A DNA stretch of 64,000 nucleotides, from contig JABLTI010000002.1 of NCBI GenBank assembly GCA_013166835.1, positions 594-64,593 on the forward strand, in the 5' to 3' direction. This stretch comes from Promethearchaeati archaeon. GTDB lineage: Archaea > Asgardarchaeota > Heimdallarchaeia > JABLTI01. The position numbers and the translations under genes were made by a program. The notes beneath the pieces were generated by a model, which was not told the DNA's origin, made no database searches, and worked only from the letters and a program-made list of their open reading frames with translations. Shown piece after piece: positions 7,991 through 47,545 of the stretch. Every line of letters starts with the position of its first letter. Position 1 is the stretch's first letter.

Positions 7991-10900
7991 TTAAGAGCCA
8001 ATTGCACTTTCAACTACTTCTTCACAGGAAATTTCGCGAAGTATTTCTTTGATAATATCAGGTGGGATACGCATTTCATTTGCAACTTGCATTGGATCAA
8101 AAATCGCTGCTTTCTTTCGCTCGCGATTCAAGATGAGGGAAATTTCAGCTTTCAACCTATCTGAGGAATAGAACGTTTTTTGATCATTATCAAGAATTCC
8201 CATATAGAGTGATGATAAGAATTCTCTTCGGACAATTGAAACAGAATCATTATGCTGAATACTAAATTCTTTTGTGATTGCTTCTAAATCAATTCTACCC
8301 CAAAGTTGGTATTCAGAGTAGAAGTACGAACGAATAGCTTGGATTTTATTTAATGATATGAAGACATCTTTGTTAATTGGTTGTCCTTCGATTTTTCTAG
8401 CAATGATTAGACTTTCAAGTAAATAATCTGAGAGTGGTAGTGATCTATCTGTTGATGAGAAGAGTGTTCGGTCGAATGTTCCTTTCTGTGACAGATCATA
8501 TATTATTCTGTTTTTAGTAGAGCTCATTATTTTCCTAAGCCTACCATGCGAAATGAAAGGAAGAGAAGCTATCAAGTCCCACGCAGCACCAACCTTTGAT
8601 GAATTTACTAACTTTAGGGTTCTAGCAATTGTCTTTGTGAACTTAGATTTCTTTAATTCAGCAAGCTCCATAATTCGTATGAAAATTGTTTCAAGCGAAT
8701 CCATGTCACAACCTGCCATTCTATTTACAGCAGTTTTTGTTAATAATTCAATAACAACTGTCTCAACATTCTTTCTTGTTTTCATTAATCGTAAGAATTT
8801 TAAAATTGCATTATCGTAAGCATTTGCTGCATCTTTGTTTGCTCCGATATCTTCGAAAATTTTTCCAGCTAATGCGATGAATTTTGTAGAAAGGTGTACT
8901 GGAATACGTGGTTGATCTATAAACGCAATACCTCTATTGAAGCATTTATTAGCAATTTCGTGTGCTTTCTGGAAATTTCTTACTCTTACTGCAGAATCTG
9001 ATGCAATTTTATAGCATTTATATGCAATATTTACATCTGCATCCCATTCTCGTGTTTGAAAGATTCGATTAATTAATCGATTTGAGCTTTCATCATCGTT
9101 TGCTTTATCAAAAGCTTCCACAGCTATTTCATAAAAGGTCATGGATTCAGGGATTTTTGTTTCTGTGACTAATCTGTCTCCTGCACTCAATGCAAAAAGC
9201 CCTATGTTTTTCAATTCTGTTGCCATAGATAATTTTTCATTGAGTTTCAAAGAGCTATCTAAGAAACTTATTGAATCACTATATTTCTTCTTCTCAAATT
9301 GTGCTTGAGCTGTTTTGAAGGAGGTTTCTGCAACTTCATTTGCTACATCAGAATTTCTTAAATCAATTAAAAGCAGAGCAGTGTGTTTCAAACGATAAGC
9401 TGCATCTTTATTCGCTCTTCTAAAAAGCTTCTGGAAGTCCCTTTGGTTATCAGTCAATTCCCTCTCAATAGCAGTTTGATTCTTTGATAATGTCAGAACT
9501 CGCATACATAATTCTACAATTTTCTTTCCTAGCGCATAATTATTATCATCTTTGCTTTCTTTTTCACCGAAAGAAATGATTGATTTTATGTAATCCGAAA
9601 TAACTTTGTAATCCACTTCTGCTCTATTTGAGTGTGGGACTTCAAATGCTTCAAGTCCTTCTATTATGTCTTCCAAAGTAGTTTGGGTAGTTCTTGCATT
9701 ATTTGTTGATAGTTGCTTGGCAAAATCTAGTAATGCTAGAACAACTGTTGTCATTAATGAGTCATTCTGTGTTTGAACCGCAATATCACGACTAGTTAAT
9801 AATGCATCATATCCTCTCACAGATTGCATATTAATAATCAAATCTTTAGATCCTAGCTTGAGAAATTCCTTCCCAACTTTTTCTATTGCATCCATATTTT
9901 GAACTTCTTGAAACATCTGGTAACAATAGCCTAGCAATTTGTATCTAATATCTAGGTCTGATTCTTGATCTAGAATTAATAATTGTTCAAAAGATTCACT
10001 GCCAATTAACGATAATAATTGCTGGCTTTCCGCATCTCTTGCTAATCTAATTGCAAAATCTAAGAAATAGAATCCTAATTGTGGTTTATTTAACATTATA
10101 TCTGCATTCGCTCTCTTAGTTAAAATTGATATTAGTTGATTGATTTTTTCTTCTTGTTTTGTTGCTTTAAAGAACTGCATAGCATCTCGAGTTATTTTAC
10201 CAATCATATTCCATTCGACATCTAGTGTTATTTTTATTCCTACTATGTAGGTTTCTGAAACATATGGTAGAAGCGCTCTTTTCGAGATATCGTGATTTCC
10301 CACAATCTCCAAAACCTTGGCACCTGCAATTGAATTCTTCTTACTAATTATATCGATAGCAAGTTTCAATGACAAATCAATAATCCTCTTAATTTCCTCT
10401 GGGTCTGGACTGCTATTCGCTAGATCTAAAGCTCTATTCAAGAAGAAAATTCCAATAGATGATTTTCTATTTGGTAAGAATTGGTTTGCAGCAGAAAGGT
10501 AAATACTAACAATTATTGCGAGAAGATCAAATCTGGAAATTTTCTCAACTAGTAATCTACCTTTCTCTAGAATATGAACGGCTTTAGTTAATTCATTTCC
10601 TTCCAAAAATCTTCTTGCTGATTCAAGAATTTGTTTTGTTGTCCCTACAGCACGCTCAATATTTTTATCTTTAAGATAAAGCTCAACTGCTTTTTGTGCA
10701 TTCTTGACAGCTTCATTTGCCTTACCTACACTTAGATGATTTCCAATAACTGTAGATGAAGTCTCTCCTGCTTTTGTATAAGCACCTGCTTTTTCAAAAA
10801 TTGTTACAGCTAGTTCATAAATATCATTTGCTTTTTCCAAGTCACTCTGAGCTAATTCAACAGCTTTAGCAAGTGTAATATCGCCAAGTTCATTACAACC

Positions 10901-13900
10901 AGCCATATTTTTAGTTTGCAATTCAATCTCAATTGCTTTATCTATAGCTAATCTCCCGCTTTTTTGATGCCCTAATTCAACTAAAATGAAACCTGAAATT
11001 AGATAGATTTTAGCTGCTTCATGTGAACCTAAAATTTCATTAGCAATGTTGGCAGCATAATCGATCAATTCTATACCGTTTACCTCGTCTCCTTTCTCAA
11101 TGAATCTATGACTCATTGATAAACAGAGATTTTTTGCATGTTCATGGTTTTCAGATTTCCGATAATACTCAATTGCAGTTTGAATAAAGCTCTTGGAGAG
11201 CTCCAATTCATTTTTATCATATAATTCACCAGCAATATTAGCTATTATATTTCCTTGTTCTAACATTCGCTCATTATTCTCTTCCAAGATTGGAAGTATT
11301 TGCGTAAACGCATTATTCATGGAATTATACATTCCAGCAGCTCGCAAACTTTCGATTCGCATACCATTGATTTCTAAAGCAAATTCTAGACTTGTTGAAA
11401 CACTGTAGTTTGCAACTTCTTCCCATAATTGCTCACCTTCCATAATTTTACCATTAGCAATTACATCTTGAGCATTTCCAACTAATTTGTGAATTGCTTT
11501 TTTCTGTTCATCTATATTCCCAGTTTTTTGATGTACTGTAACAATTTGTCCGGTAACTATGGAAGCATTCTGGTAATCCTTCATATCAAATAAGAGATCA
11601 GCAATTTCCTCTAAAATTTTTGCAGCTTGTTCGAATTCATTAGCAACCATTAAAGTGTCTGAAGCAAGCAGAACTAGTTTTACTCCCTCAACAATTCTAT
11701 TTTGTTTCAAAAGCGAATTGCAGGATTTCATATATACTTCAGAAGCTTTTATTGGTTGACTGAGTCGAAGATAGATGCCTGTAGACAAGTCAGCAATATG
11801 CAATCCAAGTTCAGTTTCTTCTTCCAATATGAAACTTGTAGCATAATTGGAAAGTTCCTCAGCAACACTCGGTGATTTCACTTTCTCATCTTGTTGCTCA
11901 AGTAAATTGACAGCTTGTAGAAATAGGTTGTATGTTGTTTGATGATCTTTGATTGAAGCAAAAGCTCTTGCTTCGAATAGGTAGACATCAATTGTTGTTT
12001 CAATAAGCTGTGATTCTTGAGCAATAGTAGAAGCTATTTCAAAACAGCTTAATGCATATTCTCTATTTCCGTCAGGGTTATTAATTAGTGATTTAGCTCC
12101 AATTTCAGCAGTTTTCAAAATGGAATTTGCTAGTTTCTCAGGGAGATTTGCTTGTTGATATGATTTGTTTGATAACTGTATTTGCCTTAATGCATTTACC
12201 CAATTTTCACGGCGAATATTGACATCAGCTAAAGCTTGAAATGCATCACCTGATCTTTCTGAATCGTTTGTTTTGATGAAGATCTGTGCTCCTGTCTCGA
12301 TTAGTTCCTCACCAAAGATGTAATTACCTTTCTCAATGAATAATTTTCCTTGAGCAAGTGCTGCTTCTCCAGCTTCCGTCAGCATTCCAATTTGATTTAA
12401 TATTGTAATACCGTTTCTAATGAATTCGGAAGCCTCATCAAACATTTCTTTTTGATCTCTCAAAATTCCTCCTTGAACGATGATTAATCTTCCTAGTTTT
12501 GCTAGATAGTCCTTCTCACCCTCAAGATTGTTTCTCGCAAAATCATGGAATTCCCTAACAGCATATAAATCGCCTAAATCAAGGAAAACGGTAGTTGAAT
12601 CATGAAGAATTTGATCTTGTGTTTCCAGATTTACTAGTGAACTAAATTCCATAGCAGTAATAAACAAGTGTTTAGCATGAATAGTTTCATTATTACTGAG
12701 AGCTCGTTTCGCTTTATCTGCACAATAAAATGCTATCTGTATAACAGGTTCATTTGAACCCAAACTTAAGTAAGATCCAACCGCTTTTCTTAATAGTTCA
12801 ATTCCGTCTTCAATGAAATTATAATCTACGAGAATTTTTGCTCCAAAGGAAACTTTTTGTGCGAAAATATCTGGGTTATTTTCACCTGTAATTATTTTAG
12901 TTAATTGAACTAACAGATCCTTAGCCAAATCATTTTGATTATTATCGAATAAAAGCTGACTATGTTCTATTAATAGGTTGGTTGCATCAAGACTTTCGCC
13001 AAGTAATGCTAAAGTATTGATACCTGTTTCAATGAAACTTTTTCCTAAAGTAAAATTCTGATCAGAGATTATTAATTGCTTCCCTGTTGAAAGCAATTTA
13101 TTAACAATATTCTTGTTTTCTTCTGGATAGTTTTTCCCCAGCACCCTTGTTGCATAAGCCAAATATTCAAGAGCAAGTTCAGGAAAACCAGTGAAAATTG
13201 CATGATCAGTAAATTCAAGAACAATGGTTGTTTCTGATATTGGATCCTTTTGTTGCGCACACTGAGCAGCGCCATTGAAAAGTTGTTTTGCTAAATTCAC
13301 ATTCTTTTCATTTAGCTTGTTTTTTGCTGCAATCACTAAGGGTGTAATTGCTCCAAGTATTTCTTCCTCAGCTTTTGCGCTTTTATATAATTTCGATGCT
13401 TCAATCATACGGAAAATTGATGCTTCATATTGTTCTAACCCTAATAATGATTCTCCGAAAGCTTTGTGCGATTTTGCAGCTCCTACTACATCACCAGCTT
13501 TTATTAGGTTCTCAACAGCTTTTATTGAGAGATTTTCTGCTTCTTTTATCTGATTTGCTTTACTTAATGCCACAGAAATTTGACTTAAGTTAGTACCTAA
13601 TTGATCAAATGCTTGGACTCCCTCTAATATTTCTTGTCCACTTTCAGTGTATTTTGTAGCTATCTCAATTTTTTTATTTGCAATTAATTCAACCGCTTTA
13701 GCAAAAATCTCATCTACAATAGCGGTAAACTTCTCGAGTAGTTTTCCAAAGAGATATGCTTTAGTAGAATTCTTGTAATCTTCTAATGCAATTTCAATTC
13801 TTCCTCTCAAAAACATGTTTTGAGCTTTTACTTGATAAAATGCTCCTATGTATTCCAAATCTATCTTTTCTATTTGGTGAATGCTTGCAAAATAATTCAT

Positions 13901-14941
13901 ACCAGTTGCAAACATTCCTTTCATACCCAAAAGAGCATAAGCATTCTTAACAATTCCATCAGCTAGTTTTAATGCTGAATCTTTTTGACCAATTTCAACA
14001 AGTAATTGTAATGCTTTATTATAGACCTCGAGAGCTGCGTCATATTTTTTCTTCGCATAAATTAATTGTGCATACTCAGAAAGAATTAGCGCAATTTCAG
14101 CAATTGTCTCAGTTAGACCAATATCTCTGCCTTTTTCAATTCCAAGATCTAATAGTTCTCCACCTGGATCTGTTTCATTTAATTTTTCTTTTATGGCTTT
14201 CAATAATTTCTTTGAACCCTTCCCAACGAGAATTTCTTGTGCTTGTGTAATTACAATCTTTATTGCATCTGCTGCTTTCCCTAACAATCTCTCAGCTTTA
14301 CAGTATTCAATCAATCCATCAAAAATAAGAAGTCCTTCTTCCAAAAAACCTTCCTCTAAAAGAAGTGTAAAAGCTTCGATTTCACCCTGAACTTTCTCTT
14401 CTTTCTTATTAATTTCTAGTAATGTTTCAGATGCTTCTTTAAGGTAATTGTTTCCTAATTTCCTATCTTCATCTTTTTTACTTGCGAGAATTAATAAAGC
14501 AATTTTTTGCAGATACTTCCCCTTTTCTGTTTGTGCTTCTTCAACATCTTTCTGAATTGCTTTTGCAGTAATTACCTTTTTATCAACAAAATCAAGTAAT
14601 AAATTATATCTCTTCTTTTTTTCTGCTTCTTCAATTAACTGATTTAATGGTTTTATTGCTTTCAAAAGGACTATCTTTTTTTCTGCTTCAGAAGTAATAC
14701 TTTCAAAAATAAATATGATTTCTACTAATAATGATGGAATATCTTCTTTCTCTGCATTCTCAATAGCTTTTAGTAGGGGTTCTTTAGCACTTTCTGGTTT
14801 ACCAGAATCAATGAATTCATTTGCAGCTTTAAGAAAAGTCTCCGCTGCATTTTTCCATTTGCTTTTTTCTTCTAATGCTATTGCTTTTTCCAATAATTGG
14901 GACATAATAACTTGCCTCTTAAATTCTTTAAACACGTACAA
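7991..14941 (-). CDS. giant (about 2,300 aa) cytoplasmic helical-repeat (TPR/SNAP-like alpha-solenoid) protein with a winged-helix-like C-terminus
   Basis: Uninterrupted 6.95-kb ORF. There is no signal peptide or TM segment. Degenerate antiparallel-helix repeats rich in A/L/E/K run throughout (e.g. WKNAAETFLKAANEFIDSGKPESAKEPLLKAIENAEKE; ALEVYNKALQLLVEIGQKDSALKLADGIV). The annotated start at 14941 is TTG. The first ATG, at 14905 (MSQLLEK...), has GAGG 9 nt upstream and is the more likely start. Confidence 0.8.
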   Translation of the reverse strand: MYVFKEFKRQVIMSQLLEKAIALEEKSKWKNAAETFLKAANEFIDSGKPESAKEPLLKAIENAEKEDIPSLLVEIIFIFESITSEAEKKIVLLKAIKPLNQLIEEAEKKKRYNLLLDFVDKKVITAKAIQKDVEEAQTEKGKYLQKIALLILASKKDEDRKLGNNYLKEASETLLEINKKEEKVQGEIEAFTLLLEEGFLEEGLLIFDGLIEYCKAERLLGKAADAIKIVITQAQEILVGKGSKKLLKAIKEKLNETDPGGELLDLGIEKGRDIGLTETIAEIALILSEYAQLIYAKKKYDAALEVYNKALQLLVEIGQKDSALKLADGIVKNAYALLGMKGMFATGMNYFASIHQIEKIDLEYIGAFYQVKAQNMFLRGRIEIALEDYKNSTKAYLFGKLLEKFTAIVDEIFAKAVELIANKKIEIATKYTESGQEILEGVQAFDQLGTNLSQISVALSKANQIKEAENLSIKAVENLIKAGDVVGAAKSHKAFGESLLGLEQYEASIFRMIEASKLYKSAKAEEEILGAITPLVIAAKNKLNEKNVNLAKQLFNGAAQCAQQKDPISETTIVLEFTDHAIFTGFPELALEYLAYATRVLGKNYPEENKNIVNKLLSTGKQLIISDQNFTLGKSFIETGINTLALLGESLDATNLLIEHSQLLFDNNQNDLAKDLLVQLTKIITGENNPDIFAQKVSFGAKILVDYNFIEDGIELLRKAVGSYLSLGSNEPVIQIAFYCADKAKRALSNNETIHAKHLFITAMEFSSLVNLETQDQILHDSTTVFLDLGDLYAVREFHDFARNNLEGEKDYLAKLGRLIIVQGGILRDQKEMFDEASEFIRNGITILNQIGMLTEAGEAALAQGKLFIEKGNYIFGEELIETGAQIFIKTNDSERSGDAFQALADVNIRRENWVNALRQIQLSNKSYQQANLPEKLANSILKTAEIGAKSLINNPDGNREYALSCFEIASTIAQESQLIETTIDVYLFEARAFASIKDHQTTYNLFLQAVNLLEQQDEKVKSPSVAEELSNYATSFILEEETELGLHIADLSTGIYLRLSQPIKASEVYMKSCNSLLKQNRIVEGVKLVLLASDTLMVANEFEQAAKILEEIADLLFDMKDYQNASIVTGQIVTVHQKTGNIDEQKKAIHKLVGNAQDVIANGKIMEGEQLWEEVANYSVSTSLEFALEINGMRIESLRAAGMYNSMNNAFTQILPILEENNERMLEQGNIIANIAGELYDKNELELSKSFIQTAIEYYRKSENHEHAKNLCLSMSHRFIEKGDEVNGIELIDYAANIANEILGSHEAAKIYLISGFILVELGHQKSGRLAIDKAIEIELQTKNMAGCNELGDITLAKAVELAQSDLEKANDIYELAVTIFEKAGAYTKAGETSSTVIGNHLSVGKANEAVKNAQKAVELYLKDKNIERAVGTTKQILESARRFLEGNELTKAVHILEKGRLLVEKISRFDLLAIIVSIYLSAANQFLPNRKSSIGIFFLNRALDLANSSPDPEEIKRIIDLSLKLAIDIISKKNSIAGAKVLEIVGNHDISKRALLPYVSETYIVGIKITLDVEWNMIGKITRDAMQFFKATKQEEKINQLISILTKRANADIMLNKPQLGFYFLDFAIRLARDAESQQLLSLIGSESFEQLLILDQESDLDIRYKLLGYCYQMFQEVQNMDAIEKVGKEFLKLGSKDLIINMQSVRGYDALLTSRDIAVQTQNDSLMTTVVLALLDFAKQLSTNNARTTQTTLEDIIEGLEAFEVPHSNRAEVDYKVISDYIKSIISFGEKESKDDNNYALGKKIVELCMRVLTLSKNQTAIERELTDNQRDFQKLFRRANKDAAYRLKHTALLLIDLRNSDVANEVAETSFKTAQAQFEKKKYSDSISFLDSSLKLNEKLSMATELKNIGLFALSAGDRLVTETKIPESMTFYEIAVEAFDKANDDESSNRLINRIFQTREWDADVNIAYKCYKIASDSAVRVRNFQKAHEIANKCFNRGIAFIDQPRIPVHLSTKFIALAGKIFEDIGANKDAANAYDNAILKFLRLMKTRKNVETVVIELLTKTAVNRMAGCDMDSLETIFIRIMELAELKKSKFTKTIARTLKLVNSSKVGAAWDLIASLPFISHGRLRKIMSSTKNRIIYDLSQKGTFDRTLFSSTDRSLPLSDYLLESLIIARKIEGQPINKDVFISLNKIQAIRSYFYSEYQLWGRIDLEAITKEFSIQHNDSVSIVRREFLSSLYMGILDNDQKTFYSSDRLKAEISLILNRERKKAAIFDPMQVANEMRIPPDIIKEILREISCEEVVESAIGS

Positions 14942-15049
14942 TATTAAATATTTGGAAATATGAACTTGCTAAATATTCGCACTTAGACAATATGAATAGG
15001 AAAAAACAACTCATAAGTTTTTAGTAGTAGGTATGTTTGTAGAATTCTA

Positions 15050-17236
15050 CTAGAAAGTATCATCAGGGGGTGGTGGTAAGGGAATTAACATACCATTTTC
15101 TAGATATTTTATTAATACAATTAATGCTTCTTCTTTCGAAAGATTGATTTCAGGATTTTGATAGGCTACATCTATCAATTCTGTAACATAAAATACTTCA
15201 TCCTCTGTTTTTGTCAAAAATTCAGTGTAAGTTTTAGCTAATTTCTTTTCGTTTTGAGTAATTGCTGTTAACCTCATTCTTTTGACGTCTGGTTTCAATG
15301 GATAAAGATATTCGAGTCTCAAATGCTTTTCAAGCAAGTCTGTTGCACCAGTAAATGTAGAAATAAACCCTGTGAAATTCAAAAGATCTTTCTTATAATT
15401 AGCTTCGAATTCATTCATGAAGAATTTTATTCGTTTCTTTAATAGAGCTCCTAACTTTTCAGTAACTAATAAAGCTGTTTTAGAATGTTCTCCTTCGTAG
15501 ATTATAATCCAAAAACCTTCACGACCAATCTCACTGAAAACACCAATACGTTTTTCTGTTTCTCCGGACATTTCTTCAGTAAATGTACCAACTGCACTCA
15601 AGAATCCACTTGTTAAAGAAACATCAATATCCTTGCCAAAACCTTGACTGAATAAGGGAACACCAGATTGTGAATGAATAAGTATAACATGTCTGATTTT
15701 CAAAATATCATTGAAAAATTCTGCCCCTGCTTCAGGATCAGCTTCCAAATCTAATGGTAGAAAGTAATTAGCTTCTGGTTCGACCTCTGCAGGTTGTTCT
15801 TTATCTTCTTGCCATTCAATTTCTTTACTTTCACCCATGCCTGCAAGGGAGCTTTCCACTTTTGATTTTACTTTGTCAATTCCTTGTTGTGTTTGGGTTT
15901 GACCATCAGTTTGAGCAGCATAAGGTGGATATGGTTCATAAGGTGAACCAATAGAATACGGACTACCATGAGTTTGAGCATCAATTTGTGGTTTTCTAGT
16001 AGCTGATTCTTGCTTGCTTACGGGAGCAACATATTGACGACAACTATAGCAATACCAGCGTCTATACTGTTCTATGAATCGGACTTGTGATTGGCAATTG
16101 GGACAGAAATTATTTGTAACATCAGGTGAATGTGGGGCAGGTGGTTTTGTTCCAGCTGGTGCAACACTTTGATAGGGTAGTAATTCTGCATTTGGTTTTT
16201 CTCTTGTTTTATCTCTCATAAAACTAAATGCTACAATTCTTCTCTTATCAATTGAGAAAACCAAGTCATTTGAACTATTGCCATTTAAATCTCCAATGCG
16301 AAGATCGTTAATATTACTATAACCCTCATAGCTTTCCATGGTGTTTTTACGGAAGATATGAAATGAACCATTAGCAGTTCCAACAACTACTTCTAGTTGT
16401 CGATCATTATCAACATCACCCACAGCGCCACAAGTTATTGCTCCATCCAAATTATGAATAGACATTAATCTATTTCGTTTGAAGATGCTCAGTCTTCCAG
16501 AGTATTCTCCAATCATAACTTCTGAAATACCATCTCGGTCAATATCTCCACTAAAGCAAAAACTAGGTTCTGTTTCTACTCTGAATTCACCTATTAAATC
16601 AAATTTCTGTAATTGTGGCCTGAATTCAATTTCTTTGAACATACCATCTTTGGATCCCGCAATAAATCCTATTTGTCCATTTCCATTGAAATCTCCAGTT
16701 ATTACATTGTTTACTGGTTGCTGGTAAACTTTACCTAATGAGAATCCTCTGATTTTATCCCAGCGATGTTTTTTCCCGGGGATTCTCTCAACCATAACTA
16801 CTTCACCATTTGCACAACCAACAACTATCTCAGAAAGTTTATTTCCATTCATATCCCCAGGTGCTGCTCGAAGAACAGCAGAGGGCAGACGAATTCCATC
16901 CTTAATATCTTTACTAAAGAAAGGTTTGCCATTTCGAGAATTAATTCGAACAACACCTTTGATATCACCCGTTACTAACTCAAATCCTCTATCTAAACTT
17001 GTTTGAGCGACACACATTGTGTTGATTTTCTCATTAATTTTTACCCCATAGTTAGCCATATGCTTGGGGTGTATGATGCATACTTCTGTTCCTCCCTTTC
17101 CTAATCTAGCCGCCATTATTTCTGATATACCATCTATATTGAAATCATGAGTTAATAATGAATGGAAATTTTGTGTTACTTCCTCAAGAGTTTGTTGCAA
17201 TGATACAAACGACCAATTAGTTAATTTCTCTCTCAT
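15050..17236 (-). CDS. multidomain protein: 7-bladed FG-GAP-like beta-propeller, zinc ribbon, low-complexity linker, longin-like domain, winged-helix-like tail
   Basis: Seven spaced blade motifs: HDFNIDGISEI, GDIKG, GDMNGNKLSEIVVG, GDFNGNGQIGFIAG, GDIDRDGISEVMIG, GDVDNDRQLEVVVG, GDLNGNSSNDLV. Zinc ribbon CPNC-x16-CYSC. P/Q/Y/T-rich linker. A beta-beta-alpha-beta-beta-beta-alpha pattern (IRHVILIHSQSGVPLFSQGFG..DVSLTSGFLSAVGTFTEEM...FWIIIYEGEHSKTALLV...). No signal peptide or TM. Confidence 0.8.
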   Translation of the reverse strand: MREKLTNWSFVSLQQTLEEVTQNFHSLLTHDFNIDGISEIMAARLGKGGTEVCIIHPKHMANYGVKINEKINTMCVAQTSLDRGFELVTGDIKGVVRINSRNGKPFFSKDIKDGIRLPSAVLRAAPGDMNGNKLSEIVVGCANGEVVMVERIPGKKHRWDKIRGFSLGKVYQQPVNNVITGDFNGNGQIGFIAGSKDGMFKEIEFRPQLQKFDLIGEFRVETEPSFCFSGDIDRDGISEVMIGEYSGRLSIFKRNRLMSIHNLDGAITCGAVGDVDNDRQLEVVVGTANGSFHIFRKNTMESYEGYSNINDLRIGDLNGNSSNDLVFSIDKRRIVAFSFMRDKTREKPNAELLPYQSVAPAGTKPPAPHSPDVTNNFCPNCQSQVRFIEQYRRWYCYSCRQYVAPVSKQESATRKPQIDAQTHGSPYSIGSPYEPYPPYAAQTDGQTQTQQGIDKVKSKVESSLAGMGESKEIEWQEDKEQPAEVEPEANYFLPLDLEADPEAGAEFFNDILKIRHVILIHSQSGVPLFSQGFGKDIDVSLTSGFLSAVGTFTEEMSGETEKRIGVFSEIGREGFWIIIYEGEHSKTALLVTEKLGALLKKRIKFFMNEFEANYKKDLLNFTGFISTFTGATDLLEKHLRLEYLYPLKPDVKRMRLTAITQNEKKLAKTYTEFLTKTEDEVFYVTELIDVAYQNPEINLSKEEALIVLIKYLENGMLIPLPPPPDDTF

Positions 17237-17519
17237 ACCGAGAAGCTTAGCTCTATTTCATTATTTTCTTTTTAGTTAATCTATAAATTCCTTTTGTTTC
17301 AGTACCTTTTCTACTAAATATCCTTAGTCTATGTTGGTTCTTTTTTTTAGAAAAAATATTAATTTACTATTCAATTCATAAATAATTAGAAACTTAATAC
17401 TCAACAAGACAAATTGAAAGATTCAAAGGGAATTTATTCTCTAATATTAAGTTTTTAATCAGTAACTATTTTAAAAAACAACGAGAATCATTGATTAGAA
17501 ATACTAGGAGTATATTGTA

Positions 17520-18194
17520 GTGTCAGCATTAATGGATGAAAGTTTGAAATCGGTTGTCTCACAGCGATTTACTAATATGATAGAGCCTGTTACATTGAAG
17601 GTCTTTTCTAATAAGAATCATTGCTTATTCTGTAATGAAATGATTTCTTTAGTGAATTCTGTTGCAGAATTATCTGATAAGATCAAAGTTGAGATTTGTG
17701 ATTGTGAAGAAAATGATCTTAAAGCAAAGGAATATGGGATAGAAAGACATCCTGCAATATCGATTGATGGGGATAAGGACTATGGAATTAGATTCTATGG
17801 GGTTCCTGCAGGTAAAGAATTTACTACATTCATTGAATCAATTATGTTAGTTTCCGGCAGAAAACCAGTACTCACCTCGGAAGCAACAGAATTACTGTCT
17901 AAAGTGAACCACAAGGTAAATCTAAAAGTCTTTGTTACTTTAGAATGTCCCTACTGCCCAGCAATGGTTATTCGAGCTCACAAGTTAGCTTTAGCCAATG
18001 ATTACATAACAGCGGAAATGATTGAGTCCTCGCAATTTGCTCAGCTAGCTGCAGATTTCGATATCTTTGGTGTGCCAAATACTATAATTAACAACGGCTT
18101 AGGAAGTGTGGAGGGTTTGGTAACAGAGGAAGTTTTGCTTCAACAAATACTTGCTGCTTTGGAAAGAACCGGAGAAAAAAGCCCTTTCACATAA
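17520..18194 (+). CDS. protein disulfide oxidoreductase (glutaredoxin-like, two thioredoxin folds)
   Basis: 224 aa with two CxxC sites in two Trx-like halves (CLFC and CPYC), ending in GVPNTIIN. This is the architecture of Pyrococcus-type PDO. GTG start with AGGAG upstream. Confidence 0.8.
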   Translation: MSALMDESLKSVVSQRFTNMIEPVTLKVFSNKNHCLFCNEMISLVNSVAELSDKIKVEICDCEENDLKAKEYGIERHPAISIDGDKDYGIRFYGVPAGKEFTTFIESIMLVSGRKPVLTSEATELLSKVNHKVNLKVFVTLECPYCPAMVIRAHKLALANDYITAEMIESSQFAQLAADFDIFGVPNTIINNGLGSVEGLVTEEVLLQQILAALERTGEKSPFT

Positions 18195-18348
18195 ATCGAA
18201 TAATTGGTTGTAAAAAAAATTAATTTTACAACTACTCTTATCATTCCAAATCTTAGAAAATAAGCAATCTTTAATAAATTAGTTCACTTTTTTTTGCGAT
18301 ATCTTTTTCAAGAAGATGAAATTCAAACTATATTCGAGGTAAAAAAAA

Positions 18349-19536
18349 TTGGTTAGCCAAGAAATAAAACCTAACATTTTTTATGTTGGAGCAAAGGATT
18401 ATGATAGGCGACTCTTTGATGATTTGATACCTTTACCTGATGGAACAACCTATAATTCTTATCTTGTCATTGGTAGTAAGAAAACAGCTTTAATTGATGC
18501 TGTAGATGCAACAAAATTCTATGAACTAAAAGCGAATATTGCCAAAACTCCTGTCAAAACTATTGATTATCTTGTATCAAATCACTCTGAGCAGGATCAT
18601 TCAGAAAGCTTAGTTAAACTCACTAAAATGTATCCTGATGCTAAAGTTGTTACTAATCCAAAAGGTAAAGAACATCTTATGGTTCATTTACATATTCCAG
18701 AAGAAAAATTCATTGTTAAAAAGGATGGAGAGACTCTTTCTCTAGGTGACAAGACACTTCAATTTATTGAAGCTCCTTGGGTTCATTGGCCTGAAACCAT
18801 GTTCACCTTAGTTATAGAAGACAAGATTCTTTTTTCATGTGATCTTTTCGGAACCCATCTCGCACAATCAGAGACTTTTGTAACTGATGAAGCAAAAACC
18901 TATGAGTCTGCCAAAAGGTATTATGCTGAAATTATGATGCCTTTCAGGAAATTGATTGTTAAACATTGTAAGAAACTTGAAGATTATGATTTTGATATGA
19001 TTGCTCCAAGTCATGGTCCGATTCATAAAAATCCTAAGCATATTATTAATGCTTACAAGGATTGGATTTCTGATAATGTGAAAAATGAAGTAATACTCCC
19101 TTATGTTTCAATGCATCACTCCGTTCGAGAAATGGTGGAGTATTTAACTGAAGCTCTTATTGAACGTGGTATTGTTGTTAAACCATTCAATTTAACAGCT
19201 ACCGATTTAGGCGAATTAGCTATGGCTCTTGTCGATGCTGCAACAATAGTTGTCGGTGCACCAGCAGTTCTTACAGGTGCTCATCCAGTTGCAGCCTATG
19301 CTGTTTTCTTAACCAATGCTTTGCGACCAAAAGCTAAACATCTTACAATAATTGGTTCTTTTGGTTGGAAATGCCAGATGCTTGAACAACTTACAGGTAT
19401 GCTTACTCGTCTAAAAGCTGAAATACTTGAGCCAGTTATTGTTCGAGGAAAAGTAACTGATGAAGGTAAAAAGAAACTAGATGCACTAGCAGATACTATT
19501 CAGAAAAAACATAAAGAATTAGGCATTTTAAGCTAG
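18349..19536 (+). CDS. fprA: flavodiiron protein (FprA / A-type flavoprotein; O2 or NO reductase)
   Basis: Metallo-beta-lactamase-like N-domain with the FDP diiron motif H-x-E-x-D-H (NHSEQDHSE), plus a C-terminal flavodoxin-like domain. About 395 aa, as in the family. Confidence 0.85.
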   Translation: MVSQEIKPNIFYVGAKDYDRRLFDDLIPLPDGTTYNSYLVIGSKKTALIDAVDATKFYELKANIAKTPVKTIDYLVSNHSEQDHSESLVKLTKMYPDAKVVTNPKGKEHLMVHLHIPEEKFIVKKDGETLSLGDKTLQFIEAPWVHWPETMFTLVIEDKILFSCDLFGTHLAQSETFVTDEAKTYESAKRYYAEIMMPFRKLIVKHCKKLEDYDFDMIAPSHGPIHKNPKHIINAYKDWISDNVKNEVILPYVSMHHSVREMVEYLTEALIERGIVVKPFNLTATDLGELAMALVDAATIVVGAPAVLTGAHPVAAYAVFLTNALRPKAKHLTIIGSFGWKCQMLEQLTGMLTRLKAEILEPVIVRGKVTDEGKKKLDALADTIQKKHKELGILS

Positions 19537-19666
19537 AATTTCAAAATTTTCAGAGAATTCTAGTTCCATTTTTCTTTTTTCATCGCTTTATAGATTTTCC
19601 ACTTTATAATTTATAGAAAAATTATTAATAAGACTCTTATTTAAAATTCTTAATGGAGTTCTCGTT

Positions 19667-20059
19667 ATGGCTAAAAAGTTAGAGATTTATAAATGCGAGA
19701 TATGTGGCAATATAATTGAAGTTCTCCATGGTGGTCAAGGCCAACTTGTATGTTGTGGTCAACCAATGATTCTCCTTGAAGAGCAGACTGCTGATTGGAA
19801 AAATGAAAAACATGTTCCAGTAATCAAAGAGAAGAAAGACGACGAAGGCAATTTAAAAGGCATCAAAGTCGTTGTTGGTAGTACCCCTCACCCGATGGTA
19901 GATGATCACTATATTGAGTGGATCGAAGTTATCAAAGACGGCAAGGCTTATAGAAAGTTCTTGAAACCTGGGGATGATCCAAAAGCTAAATTCAAAATGA
20001 AAGCTGATGGAGTCATTGCTCGAGAATACTGTAATAAGCACGGCTTATGGAAAAACTAA
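19667..20059 (+). CDS. dfx: desulfoferrodoxin (2Fe superoxide reductase)
   Basis: N-terminal desulforedoxin site CEIC...CCG. The SOR centre II motifs [16 protein letters not shown] and CNKHGLW are all present. Confidence 0.9.
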
Positions 20060-20074
20060 ACGAGTGGATACGAT

Positions 20075-20614
20075 ATGGGTAAATCAGTAAATGCTGGAGA
20101 ATCACAAGCAAGAAACCGCTATACAATGTATTCCAAAATAGCTTTCAAAGAAGAATATGTACAAATTGCTGCATTATTTACTGAAACAGCAGATAATGAA
20201 TATCAACATGCTAAACAATTCTTTAATTTCCTTGAAGGTGGCATGGTGGAATTCACAGCAGCTTATCCAACTGACATTGGTACTACAGAAGAGAATCTAA
20301 AATTCGCTGCAATGGGCGAAAACGAAGAGCATACAATACTTTATCCCGGATTTGCTAAGGTTGCTGAAGAAGAAGGTTTTCCAGAAGTTGCATTGAAATT
20401 CAAAAATATTGCTAAAGTTGAAGTTGAACATGAAAAGAGATACCTTGCACTTTTAGAGAGTATTAAAGAAGGTACAGTATTCAAAAAATCAAAGAAAATG
20501 CGATGGAAATGTCGCGTTTGTGGTTTTGTATACGAAGGTGAAGAACCACCAGAAATATGTCCAGTATGTGGACATGATCATCATTTCTACGAGCTCATTT
20601 GCGAAGAATACTAG
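20075..20614 (+). CDS. rbr: rubrerythrin
   Basis: Ferritin-like diiron ExxH motifs ([29 protein letters not shown]) followed by a C-terminal rubredoxin-like CRVC...CPVC. Confidence 0.9.
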
Positions 20615-35256: not shown

Positions 35257-36072
35257 ATGTCAAAAATGTTTCAAAGAAAAATTGTTTTACTTGGAGATCC
35301 AGGAGTTGGTAAGACAAGTTTAGTACAAAGATACATTTTTGATTCTTTTAAGAAAGACTATATGACTACACTTGGTCTAAATTTCTATGTAAGAACATTC
35401 GAGTATCCTGGAGCTAAAGTTAAGCTAATGATTTGGGACATAGCTGGTCAACAAAGCAGAAGAAAAATAGGTTTAAGATATTTACAAGGAGCTTCAGGAG
35501 CTATCCTTGCATATGATTTAACCAAAGAAGAAACTTTTGATAATTTGCCTGGTTGGTATGATGATTTAAAGGAAGCAAATGGTAAAGATGTCCCGGTTAT
35601 TGTTGTTGGCACTAAATTAGATTTAGCAAAATCAAATCGTCTTCCATTAGCTTATAATGTTAAAAAGCTGGGTGATACACCTGCTGCCAAAGCTAATTTA
35701 ATTTTCACAAGTGCGAAAACTGATACTAATGTAGATGCTGCTTTCAATTTAATCATCCAAGAAATTGTAAGTGGTTTAATACCAACACCAGATATTTCTC
35801 CAAAAATTCTAGAAGAAATAGCTACAAAGATTTTATTTTTTGTTAAAAAAGGTGATGCTTGGTCTAAAGTGGCATTAAATCATATTGAGAAAGTTGGCAA
35901 GAAATACGCTTTAGAAGTCGAAACGATAGATGCTGAAAAGGATCCTAATATTGCTGAAGCATATGGGATAACTGCATTGCCCACCATTCTTGTTGCTGGA
36001 CGTCAGTTGGTTGGTATAATACAAATTGCTCATCTCGAGAGTATTATGCACCAAATTATCGAAAACAAGTGA
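35257..36072 (+). CDS. Rab/Ras-like small GTPase fused to a C-terminal thioredoxin-fold domain lacking CxxC
   Basis: G1 GDPGVGKTS, G3 WDIAGQQ, G4 GTKLDL, G5 TSAK. Residues ~185-271 read like a small archaeal Trx/Grx (ILFFVKKGDAWSKVAL...ETIDAEKDPNIAEAYGITALPTILV.GR..VG), with DAWS where the CxxC would be. Confidence 0.8.
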   Translation: MSKMFQRKIVLLGDPGVGKTSLVQRYIFDSFKKDYMTTLGLNFYVRTFEYPGAKVKLMIWDIAGQQSRRKIGLRYLQGASGAILAYDLTKEETFDNLPGWYDDLKEANGKDVPVIVVGTKLDLAKSNRLPLAYNVKKLGDTPAAKANLIFTSAKTDTNVDAAFNLIIQEIVSGLIPTPDISPKILEEIATKILFFVKKGDAWSKVALNHIEKVGKKYALEVETIDAEKDPNIAEAYGITALPTILVAGRQLVGIIQIAHLESIMHQIIENK

Positions 36073-36074
36073 GA

Positions 36075-36881
36075 TTATTTGTATTTTTTCTGTATTTTCC
36101 CATCGGGACTGTACCCTTCTCTCATTCTATGACCAGCAATATATTGAAAAATTTTCCCTTGACAAGTTGTAAGTTTTTGTTGGATTTCAAATTCATTTGT
36201 GAAATTAATAAATTCATCAATTCTTGTTGCCAAATCCTCTAATTCATTTCTTGACAAACGGTTTCCTGCACTAGTAATGCATTGTACAAGTCCATCTGAA
36301 ACCTGAGTAAGTATTTCCTTCCCTGGAAAGAATGTAACTAGTCCAATGATTTCCCATAAAATGTTGTAGGTGATATCCTTGTTTTCTTTTTCAGAGAAAT
36401 ATTCGGCAACTTGTGATAAAGCCATAGCATAATTAAACTGAACGAAAGGATTGGTTTGATGTTTTCTCGCAAAATTACCAAGTTTAGTTAGTGTTCTATG
36501 AACATTTTTGTCCATTTCATTCATAATATAATGATAAATTAAAGCCCCTAATGCTTCACCGTAAAATTCTTGCAAATCCTCTGATTGTGACTGTGATTTT
36601 AGAATTGCTTCAATTTTAGCAATCATCTGTTCACAATCTCTGAATTTCTTTGCAACTCCAAATGGTTCCAAAGCATGTCTATAAGCTTCTGCTAATAACA
36701 ACTGAATTTCAGCATCCCCTCTATGATGCTTCACTTCTTTTTCAAAATCGCTGAGAGTTTGCACGACTGATCTGAGATTGCCAGTTTTTCCGTTCGAAAT
36801 GATTACATTAATCAAAGCTTTGAGGTTACTCGTTGAAGGCTTTGGCGACATTGTTCTCCAATCTCCGAATCTGCTTTTCAT
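36075..36881 (-). CDS. all-helical hypothetical protein downstream of a small GTPase gene
   Basis: 268-aa ORF made of helix-loop-helix repeats. No TM and no recognised motif. Confidence 0.5.
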   Translation of the reverse strand: MKSRFGDWRTMSPKPSTSNLKALINVIISNGKTGNLRSVVQTLSDFEKEVKHHRGDAEIQLLLAEAYRHALEPFGVAKKFRDCEQMIAKIEAILKSQSQSEDLQEFYGEALGALIYHYIMNEMDKNVHRTLTKLGNFARKHQTNPFVQFNYAMALSQVAEYFSEKENKDITYNILWEIIGLVTFFPGKEILTQVSDGLVQCITSAGNRLSRNELEDLATRIDEFINFTNEFEIQQKLTTCQGKIFQYIAGHRMREGYSPDGKIQKKYK

Positions 36882-36994: not shown

Positions 36995-37555
36995 TTATTT
37001 AGGTATAGTTGTGTCTTGTTTTGGGCCGTTCAGCTTCTTTTCGATTGTAGTGTCTATGATAACATTAGCAATTGCTTGAAAAACATCATCCACACCATCA
37101 CCTGTAGCTGAAGAGGTTTCAAGATATGTCTCGAAGTTATATTTTTCGTTGAGTTCTTCAAAGGAATCCAATTCAAAGGTTATACCTTGTGCCAAATCCT
37201 TTTTTCCGCCTACTAAAATTAGTTTAGTATTACTAGAATTTAAAGCTAGATCAGCCCATTCAGGAATACTATTCAAAGTATTTAGTCTTGTCAAATCAAA
37301 CATAATTACCGTAACAGTAGCACCTTTGAAGTACTTGTCAAAGATTCCCATCTGTTTGAATTGCTCTTGTCCTCCCAAATCCCATATTTGAACTAAAACA
37401 GAATGCTCCCCTGATTGTATTTCATGAGTGTGAAATGCAGCACCTATAGTTAGCTTTGTAGAATCGATAAAACTATTAGTAATATAGCGATGGATTAATG
37501 TTGTTTTGCCAACTCCACCATCTCCTGCTAAAACTACCTTTGCTAATAGTCTCAC
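36995..37555 (-). CDS. Rab/Ras-like small GTPase
   Basis: G1 GDGGVGKTT, switch-I T (KLTIGAAF), G3 WDLGGQEQF, G4 GGKKDL, G5 TSSATG. 186 aa. Confidence 0.85.
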   Translation of the reverse strand: MRLLAKVVLAGDGGVGKTTLIHRYITNSFIDSTKLTIGAAFHTHEIQSGEHSVLVQIWDLGGQEQFKQMGIFDKYFKGATVTVIMFDLTRLNTLNSIPEWADLALNSSNTKLILVGGKKDLAQGITFELDSFEELNEKYNFETYLETSSATGDGVDDVFQAIANVIIDTTIEKKLNGPKQDTTIPK

Positions 37556-45894: not shown

Positions 45895-46641
45895 ATGACT
45901 GATATTTCAGAAGTTTTGTCAGCTCTGAAACGTGGGGATTTAACCGTTGAAGAAGTCCTGAAAGAGCTGAACGATTTGTTAACAACTGTTAAGAAAGGTA
46001 TAGATGAACTCAAACAACCAATAGAGAATCTAGTTGAGTTTGAAAAAAGACAGAGTGATGAAATATTACAATTTGAATCAGGCAATTTGTCATTGTCACA
46101 AGAAATAGCTTCACTAACTGAAGAAAAAGCTACTAGTGAAAATTCACTTCAAAGAACTCAAGAAGAGTATACTGAGACAACAGAAAAAAGGGTGAAACTT
46201 GAGACAAAGGTCAGAGAGTTATCAACAGAATTGTCTAACACAAAGAAAAGGTTAGAAGCAGCAAATGCAGAACTAGCTGTTGAAACTGAAACTAATCAGA
46301 AAATAGTAGCTGAATTAAGTACTATTGTTGAATCTGCCGAACAAAAAGTTTTAGGAATTGAAAATCAAGCAGAAAAGGAAAGAGATATCATACGAAAATC
46401 AAAAGGTGAACGTATGGCTCTTGAATTTTTGATAAAGAAAAACCACATTGAATTCAATGAAATTAAGGTTATCAACTCATTAGATGGTAGAACTAATACT
46501 GATATGGCAACTATCTCAAAAATTACTGGTTTATCTGAAGCTTTAATATCAAAAACTCTACAAGGTTTAGAAAAAAGAAATTTGATTTCCTATGATGGCT
46601 CAACAGGAGCTATAACCGTGACAGGGAGTATGAAACTTTAG
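45895..46641 (+). CDS. coiled-coil protein with C-terminal winged-helix-like domain
   Basis: About 170 aa of heptad-like E/K/L/T-rich sequence, then a wH-like tail (MATISKITGLSEALISKTLQGLEKRNLISYDGSTGAITVTG). AAGGTG lies upstream of the ATG. Confidence 0.55.
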   Translation: MTDISEVLSALKRGDLTVEEVLKELNDLLTTVKKGIDELKQPIENLVEFEKRQSDEILQFESGNLSLSQEIASLTEEKATSENSLQRTQEEYTETTEKRVKLETKVRELSTELSNTKKRLEAANAELAVETETNQKIVAELSTIVESAEQKVLGIENQAEKERDIIRKSKGERMALEFLIKKNHIEFNEIKVINSLDGRTNTDMATISKITGLSEALISKTLQGLEKRNLISYDGSTGAITVTGSMKL

Positions 46642-46652
46642 GAGGGAAAAAA

Positions 46653-47402
46653 ATGACTGATTTTGTAAATATCCGAAGAAACATAATCGCTGAAAAAGAA
46701 CGACTTGAGAGATTAGCAACTAGCTCAAATCAGAAAATAGCTGATACTGTTAATGAACTTCAGAATGCAGTGGAATTCTTAGATAAAACTGAAGCCACTT
46801 TTAAAGAAATGTCTCAAAATCTTGCTGATCGTAAGAGAGATGAAATTAATAGCAAAGATCAAAGGAAAGAATTGCTTTCAATTATTGACACATTGAAAGA
46901 AAATATAGAAAGAACGCGAATTTCAATCAAAGATGAAGAAGAAAAAAATGACTCACATGAAAAAGAAATCTCACAACTATCAATAGATCTTAGCAACACC
47001 CAGAATGAACTCTCATCTACTCAACACAAAATTACAAACATAAAAGAAAATAATGCTCTAAAAACTCAAGAGAAAACTGATGTAACAGCTAGATTGGAAA
47101 ACCAGTTGACTGAAGCTCAAAGAATTCTAACTAATCTTTCTGAGGAAAAAGAGAAAGAGGTACAACTAAGCCCTATTTTAGATTTCCTTTTGAAAGAAGT
47201 AAGAATAGACATTCCTGAAGTAGAGATATTATCCGTTTTAGCCTATCGAAATCAAGCAATGGGATTGGATGAACTAAAACAAGCGGTTTCAAAAACACCT
47301 CCAGTTATTATCTTAAAAGTAATAAGAAGCCTTGATAGTAAGGGTGTCATCAAATATGATGAGAGATTAGACACTATAGAGCTAACAGCTAATTTAGTTT
47401 AG
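46653..47402 (+). CDS. coiled-coil protein with C-terminal winged-helix-like domain (tandem paralog)
   Basis: Same length (249 vs 248 aa), the same MTD start and the same layout. wH-like tail: ILSVLAYRNQAMGLDELKQAVSKTPPVIILKVIRSLDSKGVIKYDERLDTIELTA. Sits 11 nt after the upstream stop, with GGAGGG. Confidence 0.55.
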   Translation: MTDFVNIRRNIIAEKERLERLATSSNQKIADTVNELQNAVEFLDKTEATFKEMSQNLADRKRDEINSKDQRKELLSIIDTLKENIERTRISIKDEEEKNDSHEKEISQLSIDLSNTQNELSSTQHKITNIKENNALKTQEKTDVTARLENQLTEAQRILTNLSEEKEKEVQLSPILDFLLKEVRIDIPEVEILSVLAYRNQAMGLDELKQAVSKTPPVIILKVIRSLDSKGVIKYDERLDTIELTANLV

Positions 47403-47406
47403 GATT

Positions 47407-47438
47407 GGATTCGACAAAAATTGAATCCCTTTTTTTAT
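47407..47438 (+). terminator. hairpin plus T-tract
   Basis: GGATTC (47407-47412) pairs with GAATCC (47423-47428), then CTTTTTTTATC. Confidence 0.4.
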
Positions 47439-47545
47439 CTTATGATTCAAAATATGACAACAAACTTGATACATTAGATGGATTTATTAATATAATTCAT
47501 GAATATGATTTCGTAGTAAAATATTGACAAAAAACTAATTCATCA

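Follow-up and report, generated by a model that had tools for sequence, protein, structure and literature searches.

The DNA analysed here, referred to as the window, is a stretch of 64,000 nucleotides from contig JABLTI010000002.1 (positions 594–64,593) of a Promethearchaeati archaeon in the Heimdallarchaeia. It is AT-rich, with a GC content of ca. 33%. Its minus strand carries two neighbouring genes that are the subject of this analysis. The upstream gene encodes a protein that joins a β-propeller to a zinc ribbon, a disordered linker and a C-terminal module with a roadblock-like half and a winged-helix-like half, and is called the adaptor here. The downstream gene encodes a very large TPR-like protein, called the giant. 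Both belong to families confined to a small group of species, and the module of the adaptor recurs in hundreds of other proteins. Coordinates are collected in Table 1.

The gene pair and its two products

The initial annotation had recognised two co-oriented open reading frames (ORFs) on the minus strand, one of 728 aa (15050–17236) and one of 2,316 aa that begins with a TTG (7991–14941), with 108 nt between them. Both are present, and the spacing is correct for the ORFs as called. The starts of both genes appear to lie further downstream. The 26 orthologues of the adaptor (57–94% identity) start at MQQTLEE, corresponding to residue 13 of the ORF in the window, and the upstream ATG at 17236 is missing in a 96%-identical relative, so the true start is probably the TTG at 17200; residue numbers throughout follow the 728-aa ORF. 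For the giant, the most likely start is the ATG at 14905, since the resulting length of 2,304 aa agrees with that of the orthologues (2,302–2,306 aa). With these starts the gap between the genes is 144 nt and not 108.

Table 1. Features of the gene pair, and small-GTPase genes, in the window
Feature	Position	Strand	Basis or remarks
Propeller-roadblock adaptor gene	15050..17200	(-)	716 aa from probable start TTG 17200; ORF to ATG 17236, 728 aa
BRE (B recognition element)/TATA-like promoter, conserved, AAAAGGAATTTATAGA	17280..17295	(-)	ca. 80 nt upstream of adaptor start
Seven-blade FG-GAP-type β-propeller, residues 14-348	16193..17197	(-)	Pfam, AlphaFold2 (AF2), Foldseek
Four-cysteine zinc ribbon CPNC-x14-CYSC, residues ~376-403	16028..16111	(-)	orthologue alignment, AF2
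Disordered, indel-rich linker, residues ~404-495	15752..16027	(-)	predicted local distance difference test (pLDDT), alignment, hydropathy
Roadblock-like + winged-helix module, residues 492-728	15053-15763	(-)	no Pfam model; profile search
Roadblock/longin-class domain (reasonable assignment), residues ~496-613	15398..15751	(-)	AF2 topology; weak profile signals
Helical winged-helix-like second half of module, residues 614-728	15053..15397	(-)	AF2, invariant columns
Conserved ~25-nt intergenic block, C..T.CTAAAWRYTTATSAGT..TTT + T-run	14998..15030	(-)	10-25 nt past adaptor stop codon
Giant TPR-like scaffold gene	7991..14905	(-)	2,304 aa from most likely start ATG 14905
N-terminal half of giant, presumed helical-repeat solenoid, residues 1-1113	11567..14905	(-)	TPR_12, composition, hhalign
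TPR-like α-solenoid of giant, residues ~1114-2141	8483..11566	(-)	AF2, Foldseek
C-terminal non-solenoid region of giant, two small winged-helix/helix-turn-helix (HTH)-like domains, residues ~2156-2303	7997..8440	(-)	AF2
Ras/Rab-like GTPase with C-terminal thioredoxin/KaiB-like extension	35257-36072	(+)	
Ras-like GTPase	36995-37555	(-)	
Arf-like GTPase	47546-48103	(+)	

The propeller of the adaptor matches two Pfam families above their curated thresholds: FG-GAP_3 (E 2e-10, 41.4 bits against a cut-off of 26.9) and FG-GAP (E 9e-7, 29.1 bits against 22.1). An AF2 model built on the alignment of the 26 orthologues (mean pLDDT 67) has 28 strands in residues 14–348, forming seven blades of four strands each at pLDDT 70–90, and a GD-x-[DN]-x-[DN] loop can be read from the sequence in every blade, seven in all. 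With a profile match above threshold and seven blades with DxDxDG-like loops, this part is a β-propeller of the FG-GAP/VCBS type. The four cysteines of the zinc ribbon that follows (C378, C381, C396 and C399) are invariant across the orthologues; the motif region is modelled as three short strands, and its Pfam zinc-ribbon matches are weak. Residues 408–491 of the linker are modelled at pLDDT below 50, have variable alignment columns and contain no hydrophobic segment. The domain after the linker (residues 501–613, pLDDT 60–86) has the order α-β-β-α-β-β-β-α and includes a stretch, IDVSLTSGFLSAVGTFTEEM, that is invariant among the orthologues. Residues 615–719 are modelled as a helical, winged-helix-like tail at pLDDT ca. 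80–86. Pfam, AF2 and the alignment agree with the domains originally read from the sequence – propeller, zinc ribbon, linker, longin-like domain and winged-helix tail. The protein ends in LIKYLENGML-x-P-x-PPPP (15065..15088, minus strand), which is invariant in 26/26 orthologues. The P-x-PPPP tail could be a polyproline ligand; Heimdallarchaeial profilin reportedly binds polyproline.

The only Pfam family past threshold in the giant is TPR_12 (residues 271–309, 36.1 bits against a cut-off of 30.1). The AF2 model of the giant covers residues 1105–2304, with an overall pLDDT of 78. It contains ca. 52 helices of about 17 residues each, stacked in regular hairpins to approximately residue 2141 and mostly at pLDDT 80–92; together with the profile match, these place the giant in the TPR superfamily. 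The N-terminal half is presumed to be a solenoid too, as judged from its TPR_12 match, a composition the same as that of the C-terminal half, and a weak similarity between the two halves in hhalign (P = 1.5e-4). The giant had been described as helical hairpins from end to end, which fits the C-terminal half of the model to about residue 2141 but not the last ca. 160 residues. Those are modelled as winged-helix/HTH-like domains of helices and short strands (pLDDT 45–70), and a weak Pfam match to HTH_Cmi2_C (E 0.04) falls in the same region. There is no PCI match in Pfam, and PCI proteins are absent from the top 50 Foldseek matches of the C-terminal half. The C-terminal region is among the best-conserved parts of the protein, with a column identity of 0.84–0.85.

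Eleven orthologues of the giant were found, nine full-length (2,302–2,304 aa) and two truncated. Ten aligned sequences, with identities down to 54%, occupy 2,306 columns, so that the family is nearly free of insertions and deletions. Even the most divergent orthologue, at 40% identity, has only five one-residue gaps over the 2,306 columns. Such a near-invariant length at 40% identity is unexpected for a repeat protein. Conservation peaks at residues 1057–1152 and 1921–2304 and is lowest in the N-terminal half. A profile search of the PDB with the giant family gave no significant match. One Asgard TPR protein (P0059), at 19% identity, is a remote relative and the sole homologue detected outside the clade; no module-bearing neighbour was seen at its locus. 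An NCBIfam search with the adaptor and the giant gave no usable matches.

The C-terminal module of the adaptor

Residues 492–728 of the adaptor gave no Pfam match and no significant sequence match in the PDB, with either a close or a diverse alignment as the query. When a profile of the module was run against 1.84 billion representative proteins (clusters at 50% identity), 930 representatives matched at E ≤ 1e-3, and 333 of them at E ≤ 1e-10. A word-indexed homologue search with the same profile returned orthologue fragments only. The two halves of the module travel together in the 930 representatives, and the match is almost always at the C-terminus, in proteins of 250–2,640 aa. The named members sampled are all from Asgard archaea (Hodarchaeota, Hermodarchaeota, Promethearchaeota and Lokiarchaeum ossiferum). 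The module is thus a large family of at least 930 clusters without a Pfam model, and the named members sampled are all Asgard.

Most of the module proteins appear to be anchored in the membrane. In 119 of the 147 best matches (81%) a membrane helix lies ahead of the module, at a median distance of 15 residues, and in 60 of these 119 there is a hydrophobic segment at the N-terminus as well. The residues after the membrane helix are rich in R/K, consistent with a cytoplasmic position of the module. Domains ahead of the helix in the few members scanned are FG-GAP, LVIVD, Ig-like, SBP_bac_5 and TSP3. Other members are soluble fusions, in which the module is joined to a Ras-family GTPase (P0064, P0067), to a HerA/DUF87 (HerA/FtsK-like) ATPase (P0076, P0120, P0132, P0189) or to HEAT repeats (P0104). 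No report of Asgard receptors with roadblock tails was found in the literature searched.

In one membrane-anchored paralogue, P0065, a hydrophobic N-terminal segment is followed by an FG-GAP propeller, a membrane helix and finally the module, which is 32% identical to that of the adaptor (E 4e-32). The zinc ribbon and linker of the adaptor stand where these paralogues have the membrane helix. A Kyte-Doolittle scan found no membrane helix and no N-terminal hydrophobic segment in the adaptor or the giant, which bears out the earlier placement of both proteins in the cytoplasm, without signal peptide or transmembrane helix. The adaptor is fully cytoplasmic, a soluble version of the membrane-anchored module proteins.

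FG-GAP/VCBS repeats are usually extracellular, and the nearest module-bearing paralogues have their propellers outside the cell. By that precedent the adaptor might be an exported adhesin or surface protein, as most prokaryotic FG-GAP/VCBS proteins are. This is extremely improbable given the conserved hydrophilic N-terminus of the 26 orthologues, the lack of any signal peptide or membrane segment in the hydropathy scan, the four invariant cysteines of the zinc ribbon, and the cytoplasmic side on which the module lies in the membrane-anchored paralogues. Among prokaryotes, an FG-GAP propeller in the cytoplasm is unusual.

The first half of the module can reasonably be assigned to the roadblock/longin class, although the assignment is not proven. 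Its secondary-structure order in the AF2 model (residues 501–613) agrees with that of roadblock proteins of the MP1/LAMTOR type, and 'longin-like', the term first applied to it, names the right fold class by that topology. Signals from sequence profiles are weak. When the diverse module alignment was compared with single roadblock proteins in hhalign, with results that are leads only, LAMTOR3/MP1 aligned in register over β1-β2-α2 (P = 0.003, probability 11%), DYNLRB1 gave a weaker in-register match, and LAMTOR2 gave none. Among 26 diverse module members there were single sub-threshold Pfam matches to Sybindin (0.01), MAPKK1_Int (0.06) and Robl_LC7 (0.22). The window module itself belongs to none of the Robl_LC7, MAPKK1_Int or longin families by Pfam profile.

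Roadblock/longin domains are dimeric platforms for small GTPases, as in MglB, Ragulator/Rag and TRAPP. The module resembles the Ragulator/Rag and MglB/MglA systems in the MP1/LAMTOR3 order of secondary structure and in the weak in-register LAMTOR3 match, and the fusions of a GTPase to the module resemble Rag, a GTPase with a C-terminal roadblock domain. These systems differ in that they have no significant sequence homology to the module and lack any counterpart of the propeller, the zinc ribbon and the giant TPR protein.

Roadblock/longin dimers are described as GTPase platforms in PMC10933270; proteins of the roadblock superfamily are reported there and in bioRxiv 10.1101/2020.10.19.343400 to be abundant and shuffled in Asgard archaea, and the latter also describes numerous small GTPases in Asgard genomes. 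As far as these accounts go (Liu et al., asCOGs; Tran et al. 2024), the Asgard multidomain proteins with roadblock/LC7-longin domains are like the module proteins in α/β platform topology, in named members that are all Asgard, and in shuffled, lineage-specific architectures that include small-GTPase fusions. Unlike them, the module has no Pfam Robl_LC7 or longin match and always has the winged-helix-like second half. Its main context, a tail on the cytoplasmic side of single-pass membrane proteins, is absent from the relevant passages of PMC10933270 and bioRxiv 10.1101/2020.10.19.343400. The gene pair is a new variant that falls within the heavily shuffled Asgard repertoire of roadblock-superfamily and TPR proteins already known.

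Conservation of the pair and its proposed working

Homologues of the adaptor form a tight family of ca. 28 proteins with 57–94% identity, and beyond these there are only partial FG-GAP matches. The labels on named homologues are Heimdallarchaeota or Asgard-group, and Thorarchaeota for a single partial sequence. A genome scan with the orthologue alignment as the query, covering one genome for each of 185,579 species, found the adaptor gene in 10 records, nine labelled Heimdallarchaeota and one labelled Bathyarchaeia. The Bathyarchaeia-labelled record (L009, DATKZI010000004.1, Candidatus Bathyarchaeia) has the pair, with an intergenic sequence identical to that of L003. It is probably a mis-binned or mislabelled metagenome-assembled genome, because all other carriers are labelled Heimdallarchaeota. 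The giant gene is directly downstream of the adaptor gene, on the same strand, in 12/12 loci with enough downstream sequence, so the syntenic pairing extends beyond this genome. The adaptor and giant families share one narrow distribution, and the pair is specific to a lineage of ca. 10 Heimdallarchaeial species.

Two non-coding elements are also conserved. Upstream of the adaptor, the AAAAGGAATTTA core of the promoter is found in the window and in L002, L003, L006, L009, L012, L013 and L014, and the four bases after it vary (TAGA, TACA or, in L013, AAGA). Between the genes, the block past the adaptor stop codon has fifteen invariant columns in eight orthologous intergenic regions that are otherwise divergent. 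It has one exact match in the window and is missing from L001. This block is a candidate terminator and/or promoter element, or may be a binding site. The initial annotation had pointed to an AT-rich stretch and a GAGG before the giant gene; both are present, and a GAGG or GGGG ahead of the ATG is conserved in orthologues. The AT-rich box was rejected as the promoter of the giant: it is not conserved, whereas the block after the adaptor stop codon is.

The preferred reading, held with somewhat less than even confidence, is that the pair is a lineage-specific, cytoplasmic adaptor-plus-scaffold linked to roadblock/small-GTPase signalling, and not the ancestor of a coat. The FG-GAP propeller would offer a binding surface and the linker of ca. 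90 residues a flexible tether. By analogy with roadblock/longin dimers, the module could act as a docking or dimerisation platform; the role is suggested because those dimers are GTPase platforms and because the module is fused to GTPases in some proteins. Such a platform would connect the protein that carries it to small-GTPase/NTPase switches or to further proteins that bear the module. The giant would be a scaffold of fixed length that the adaptor brings to the module platform, or that is anchored there. The resulting assembly would be a cytoplasmic scaffold/adaptor complex rather than a membrane coat that polymerises.

Several observations weigh against this reading. The whole neighbourhood of ca. 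20 kb is conserved in the same genomes, with thioredoxin/oxidative-stress genes upstream and MFS and ABC transporters downstream. Since the wider block is syntenic, adjacency alone is weak evidence of a functional link. At the most divergent locus, the two genes are separated by an inserted glyoxalase gene. The adaptor and the giant need not be co-transcribed, because the intergenic region has a T-run and the conserved block. The roadblock assignment comes from the AF2 topology and weak sequence signals, with Pfam Robl_LC7 unmatched. There are no recurring neighbours at the loci of two membrane-anchored module proteins. Finally, no GTPase gene adjoins the pair, and none lies within ±10 kb at three orthologous loci.

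Some of these points would equally fit two functionally unrelated neighbours, adjacent only through the block synteny of closely related genomes. This alternative is unlikely, if by no means negligible. It is in keeping with the conserved flanking genes on both sides at the same loci, with the separate conserved element upstream of each gene, with the inserted gene, and with unequal rates of change – the giant diverges faster than the adaptor at every locus, at 40–67% against 56–81% identity. It accounts less well for an adjacency and orientation that persist down to 40% identity in the giant and 56% in the adaptor, and through the insertion. Both are orphan families with one narrow distribution. 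The fusion of HEAT repeats, which form an α-solenoid, to the module in P0104 is a further, weak Rosetta-stone hint of a link between the two types of protein.

For the adaptor-plus-scaffold reading, the link to small GTPases is indirect. The Arf-like and Ras/Rab-like GTPases noted earlier are indeed encoded in the window, but their proposed linkage to the pair does not stand: they are 18–30 kb away, and GTPase genes are not found within ±10 kb of the pair at the three orthologous loci. What remains of a connection is the fusion of the module to Ras-family GTPases. At one locus two divergently oriented GTPase-module genes flank one small gene at a distance of 0.4 kb from each other, and another GTPase-module gene lies by an SMCR8-like gene and a small GTPase gene. 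In the latter case (L017, 4262–8359) the fusion gene adjoins a gene for a 555-aa protein with a weak SMCR8_C match and one for a 188-aa small GTPase; the contig is from the same metagenome sample as L001.

Other genes of the window were seen near these features. A cluster for thioredoxin, an ODP metallo-β-lactamase, desulfoferrodoxin and rubrerythrin (17520–20614, plus strand) is divergent from the adaptor gene and syntenic at the orthologous loci. At 1626–2756 on the plus strand, 5 kb from the giant gene, is a gene whose 376-aa product consists of PBS-lyase-type HEAT repeats throughout, another α-solenoid of the neighbourhood. An uncharacterised ORF of 268 aa (36075–36881, minus strand) lies between the two Ras-like GTPase genes. 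Upstream of the Arf-like GTPase gene there are two co-oriented ORFs of ca. 248 aa. Neither matches a Pfam family above threshold, and one has just a below-cut-off match to Lebercilin; the two ORFs and the GTPase gene (45895–48103, plus strand) may form an operon.

Comparison with coats and other propeller and solenoid assemblies

The closest structures to the adaptor in Foldseek are ITFG2 (a part of KICSTOR), BBS2, BBS9, BBS1 and BBS7, at E-values of ca. 1e-11 to 1e-9, followed by WD40 proteins at ca. 1e-9. The top match is ITFG2 within KICSTOR (E 1e-11, TM-score on target 0.65). ITFG2 is also the top match in a PDB profile search (E 1.7e-8), over 72 residues that correspond to two FG-GAP blades. 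The Pfam models for the BBS7 propeller, Itfg2 (22.1 bits against a cut-off of 27) and BBS2_Mid all match the adaptor below cut-off. Bacterial FG-GAP proteins bear the same Pfam families (BBS/Itfg2-type) in precomputed annotation, and the extracellular propeller of the Asgard paralogue P0065 matches BBS2_Mid at 2.6e-11, more strongly than the adaptor does. The signal is unspecific because secreted or extracellular FG-GAP proteins give the same sub-threshold Pfam matches, and the matches to ITFG2, BBS2, BBS7 and BBS9 are a general property of FG-GAP repeats.

If these matches were taken at face value, the adaptor would be truly orthologous or ancestral to ITFG2 or to the BBS2/7/9 propellers, and the giant a counterpart of SZT2 or BBS4/8, together a precursor of a nutrient-sensing or cargo-adaptor complex. 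The ITFG2 match leads both searches, and the roadblock-like domain that the adaptor also contains is reminiscent of Ragulator and Rag. Such orthology is nevertheless very improbable. The profile match is confined to its 72 residues, and the Pfam matches that might extend it are below cut-off and shared with extracellular proteins. The pair shows neither full-length homology to ITFG2 nor an SZT2-like partner; SZT2/KICSTOR identity of the giant was rejected, as no SZT2 chain is among the top 50 Foldseek matches of its C-terminal half. The very narrow distribution is a further point against it. To our knowledge, ITFG2 has no roadblock, zinc-ribbon or winged-helix extension. The coiled coil, GAE, platform and α-helical domains that follow the propeller in BBS2/7/9 are not found in the adaptor, which has the zinc ribbon, linker, roadblock-like and winged-helix-like parts instead. 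What the pair shares with the BBSome and KICSTOR is a cytoplasmic, FG-GAP-like propeller of seven blades and separate propeller and scaffold polypeptides, a likeness that, on the propeller side, is generic to FG-GAP.

For the giant, the model of the C-terminal 1,200 residues was compared with the PDB in Foldseek, and the top 50 matches were considered. These are led by Ski3/TTC37, IFT139/TTC21B, Ctr9 and separase, with E-values of ca. 1e-8, TM-scores of 0.1–0.17 and root-mean-square deviations of 30–45 Å. No clathrin, COPI, Sec31 or Nup chain is among the 50. The TPR region of IFT140, a coat-related protein, ranks 29th (E 1.8e-5). Like Ski3/TTC37, IFT139/TTC21B and Ctr9, the giant is predicted to be a continuous TPR-like superhelix of more than 1,000 residues. 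Unlike them, it does not superpose globally (TM-scores below 0.2), is twice as long, has a winged-helix-like end, and is without detectable sequence homologues outside its clade save the one 19%-identical Asgard protein.

These results bear on the initial annotation of the locus, which saw a split protocoatomer: propeller and α-solenoid subunits that form a membrane-coat lattice controlled by Arf/Rab-like GTPases and related to the ancestors of COPI/II, clathrin, the nuclear pore complex (NPC), intraflagellar transport (IFT) or the BBSome. Its description of the products is confirmed – they are adjacent, co-oriented and cytoplasmic, one a propeller and the other an α-solenoid – and both fold classes of the protocoatomers (clathrin, COPI α/β', Sec31, Nup, IFT-A) are therefore encoded side by side. 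In the BBSome, too, propellers and TPR solenoids are in separate subunits. The closest propeller structures are the cytoplasmic, FG-GAP-like propellers of eukaryotic KICSTOR (ITFG2) and BBSome (BBS2/9/1/7), and the solenoid matches include IFT139 as well as the TPR part of IFT140. The general idea of adjacent β-propeller and α-solenoid genes in Asgard archaea has already been published (PMC6141808). On the other side, the main text of a large, structure-based survey of Asgard proteomes (PMC12962969) contains none of the words propeller, solenoid and coat.

A specific relationship to coats does not follow from the sequences and models, and the split protocoatomer is quite improbable. The solenoid likeness is at the level of repeats, led by the non-coat proteins Ski3, Ctr9 and separase and by generic long TPR proteins overall. 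The propeller is of the FG-GAP and not the WD40 type, the solenoid a regular TPR array and not CHCR or ACE1, and the ITFG2 match is barely better than those to WD40 proteins (E 1e-11 against 1e-9). No GAE, platform or ACE1 element was detected in the pair. A protocoatomer has its propeller followed by its solenoid in a single polypeptide; here there are two genes, with a conserved block between them and probably separate regulatory elements. The GTPases proposed to control the coat are distant and not syntenic. A pair found in only about ten species cannot, on that distribution, be read as ancestral. What is left of the coat reading is a generic analogy, and citing the gene pair as the ancestor of a coat would be unwarranted, since the likeness is at the level of fold class and the pair is limited to a handful of species.

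The near-exact length of the giant at 40% identity points to a precise architectural role and makes it a good target for structure determination.

A more far-reaching proposal starts from the module family. The module would be the common docking unit of an Asgard-wide signalling system, as yet undescribed, in which hundreds of single-pass surface receptors with module tails pair, in the manner of Ragulator and Rag, with proteins that join the module to a GTPase or ATPase. In this clade the soluble adaptor would recruit the TPR superhelix of 2,304 residues and give a GTPase-switched, BBSome-like assembly of separate propeller and TPR subunits. As a whole this proposal is rather improbable. Were the module a GTPase platform of the roadblock type, signalling from receptors to GTPases would form a widespread layer in Asgard archaea. 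Such a layer, if real, would be relevant to the way in which eukaryote-like control of GTPases was wired before the origin of eukaryotes.

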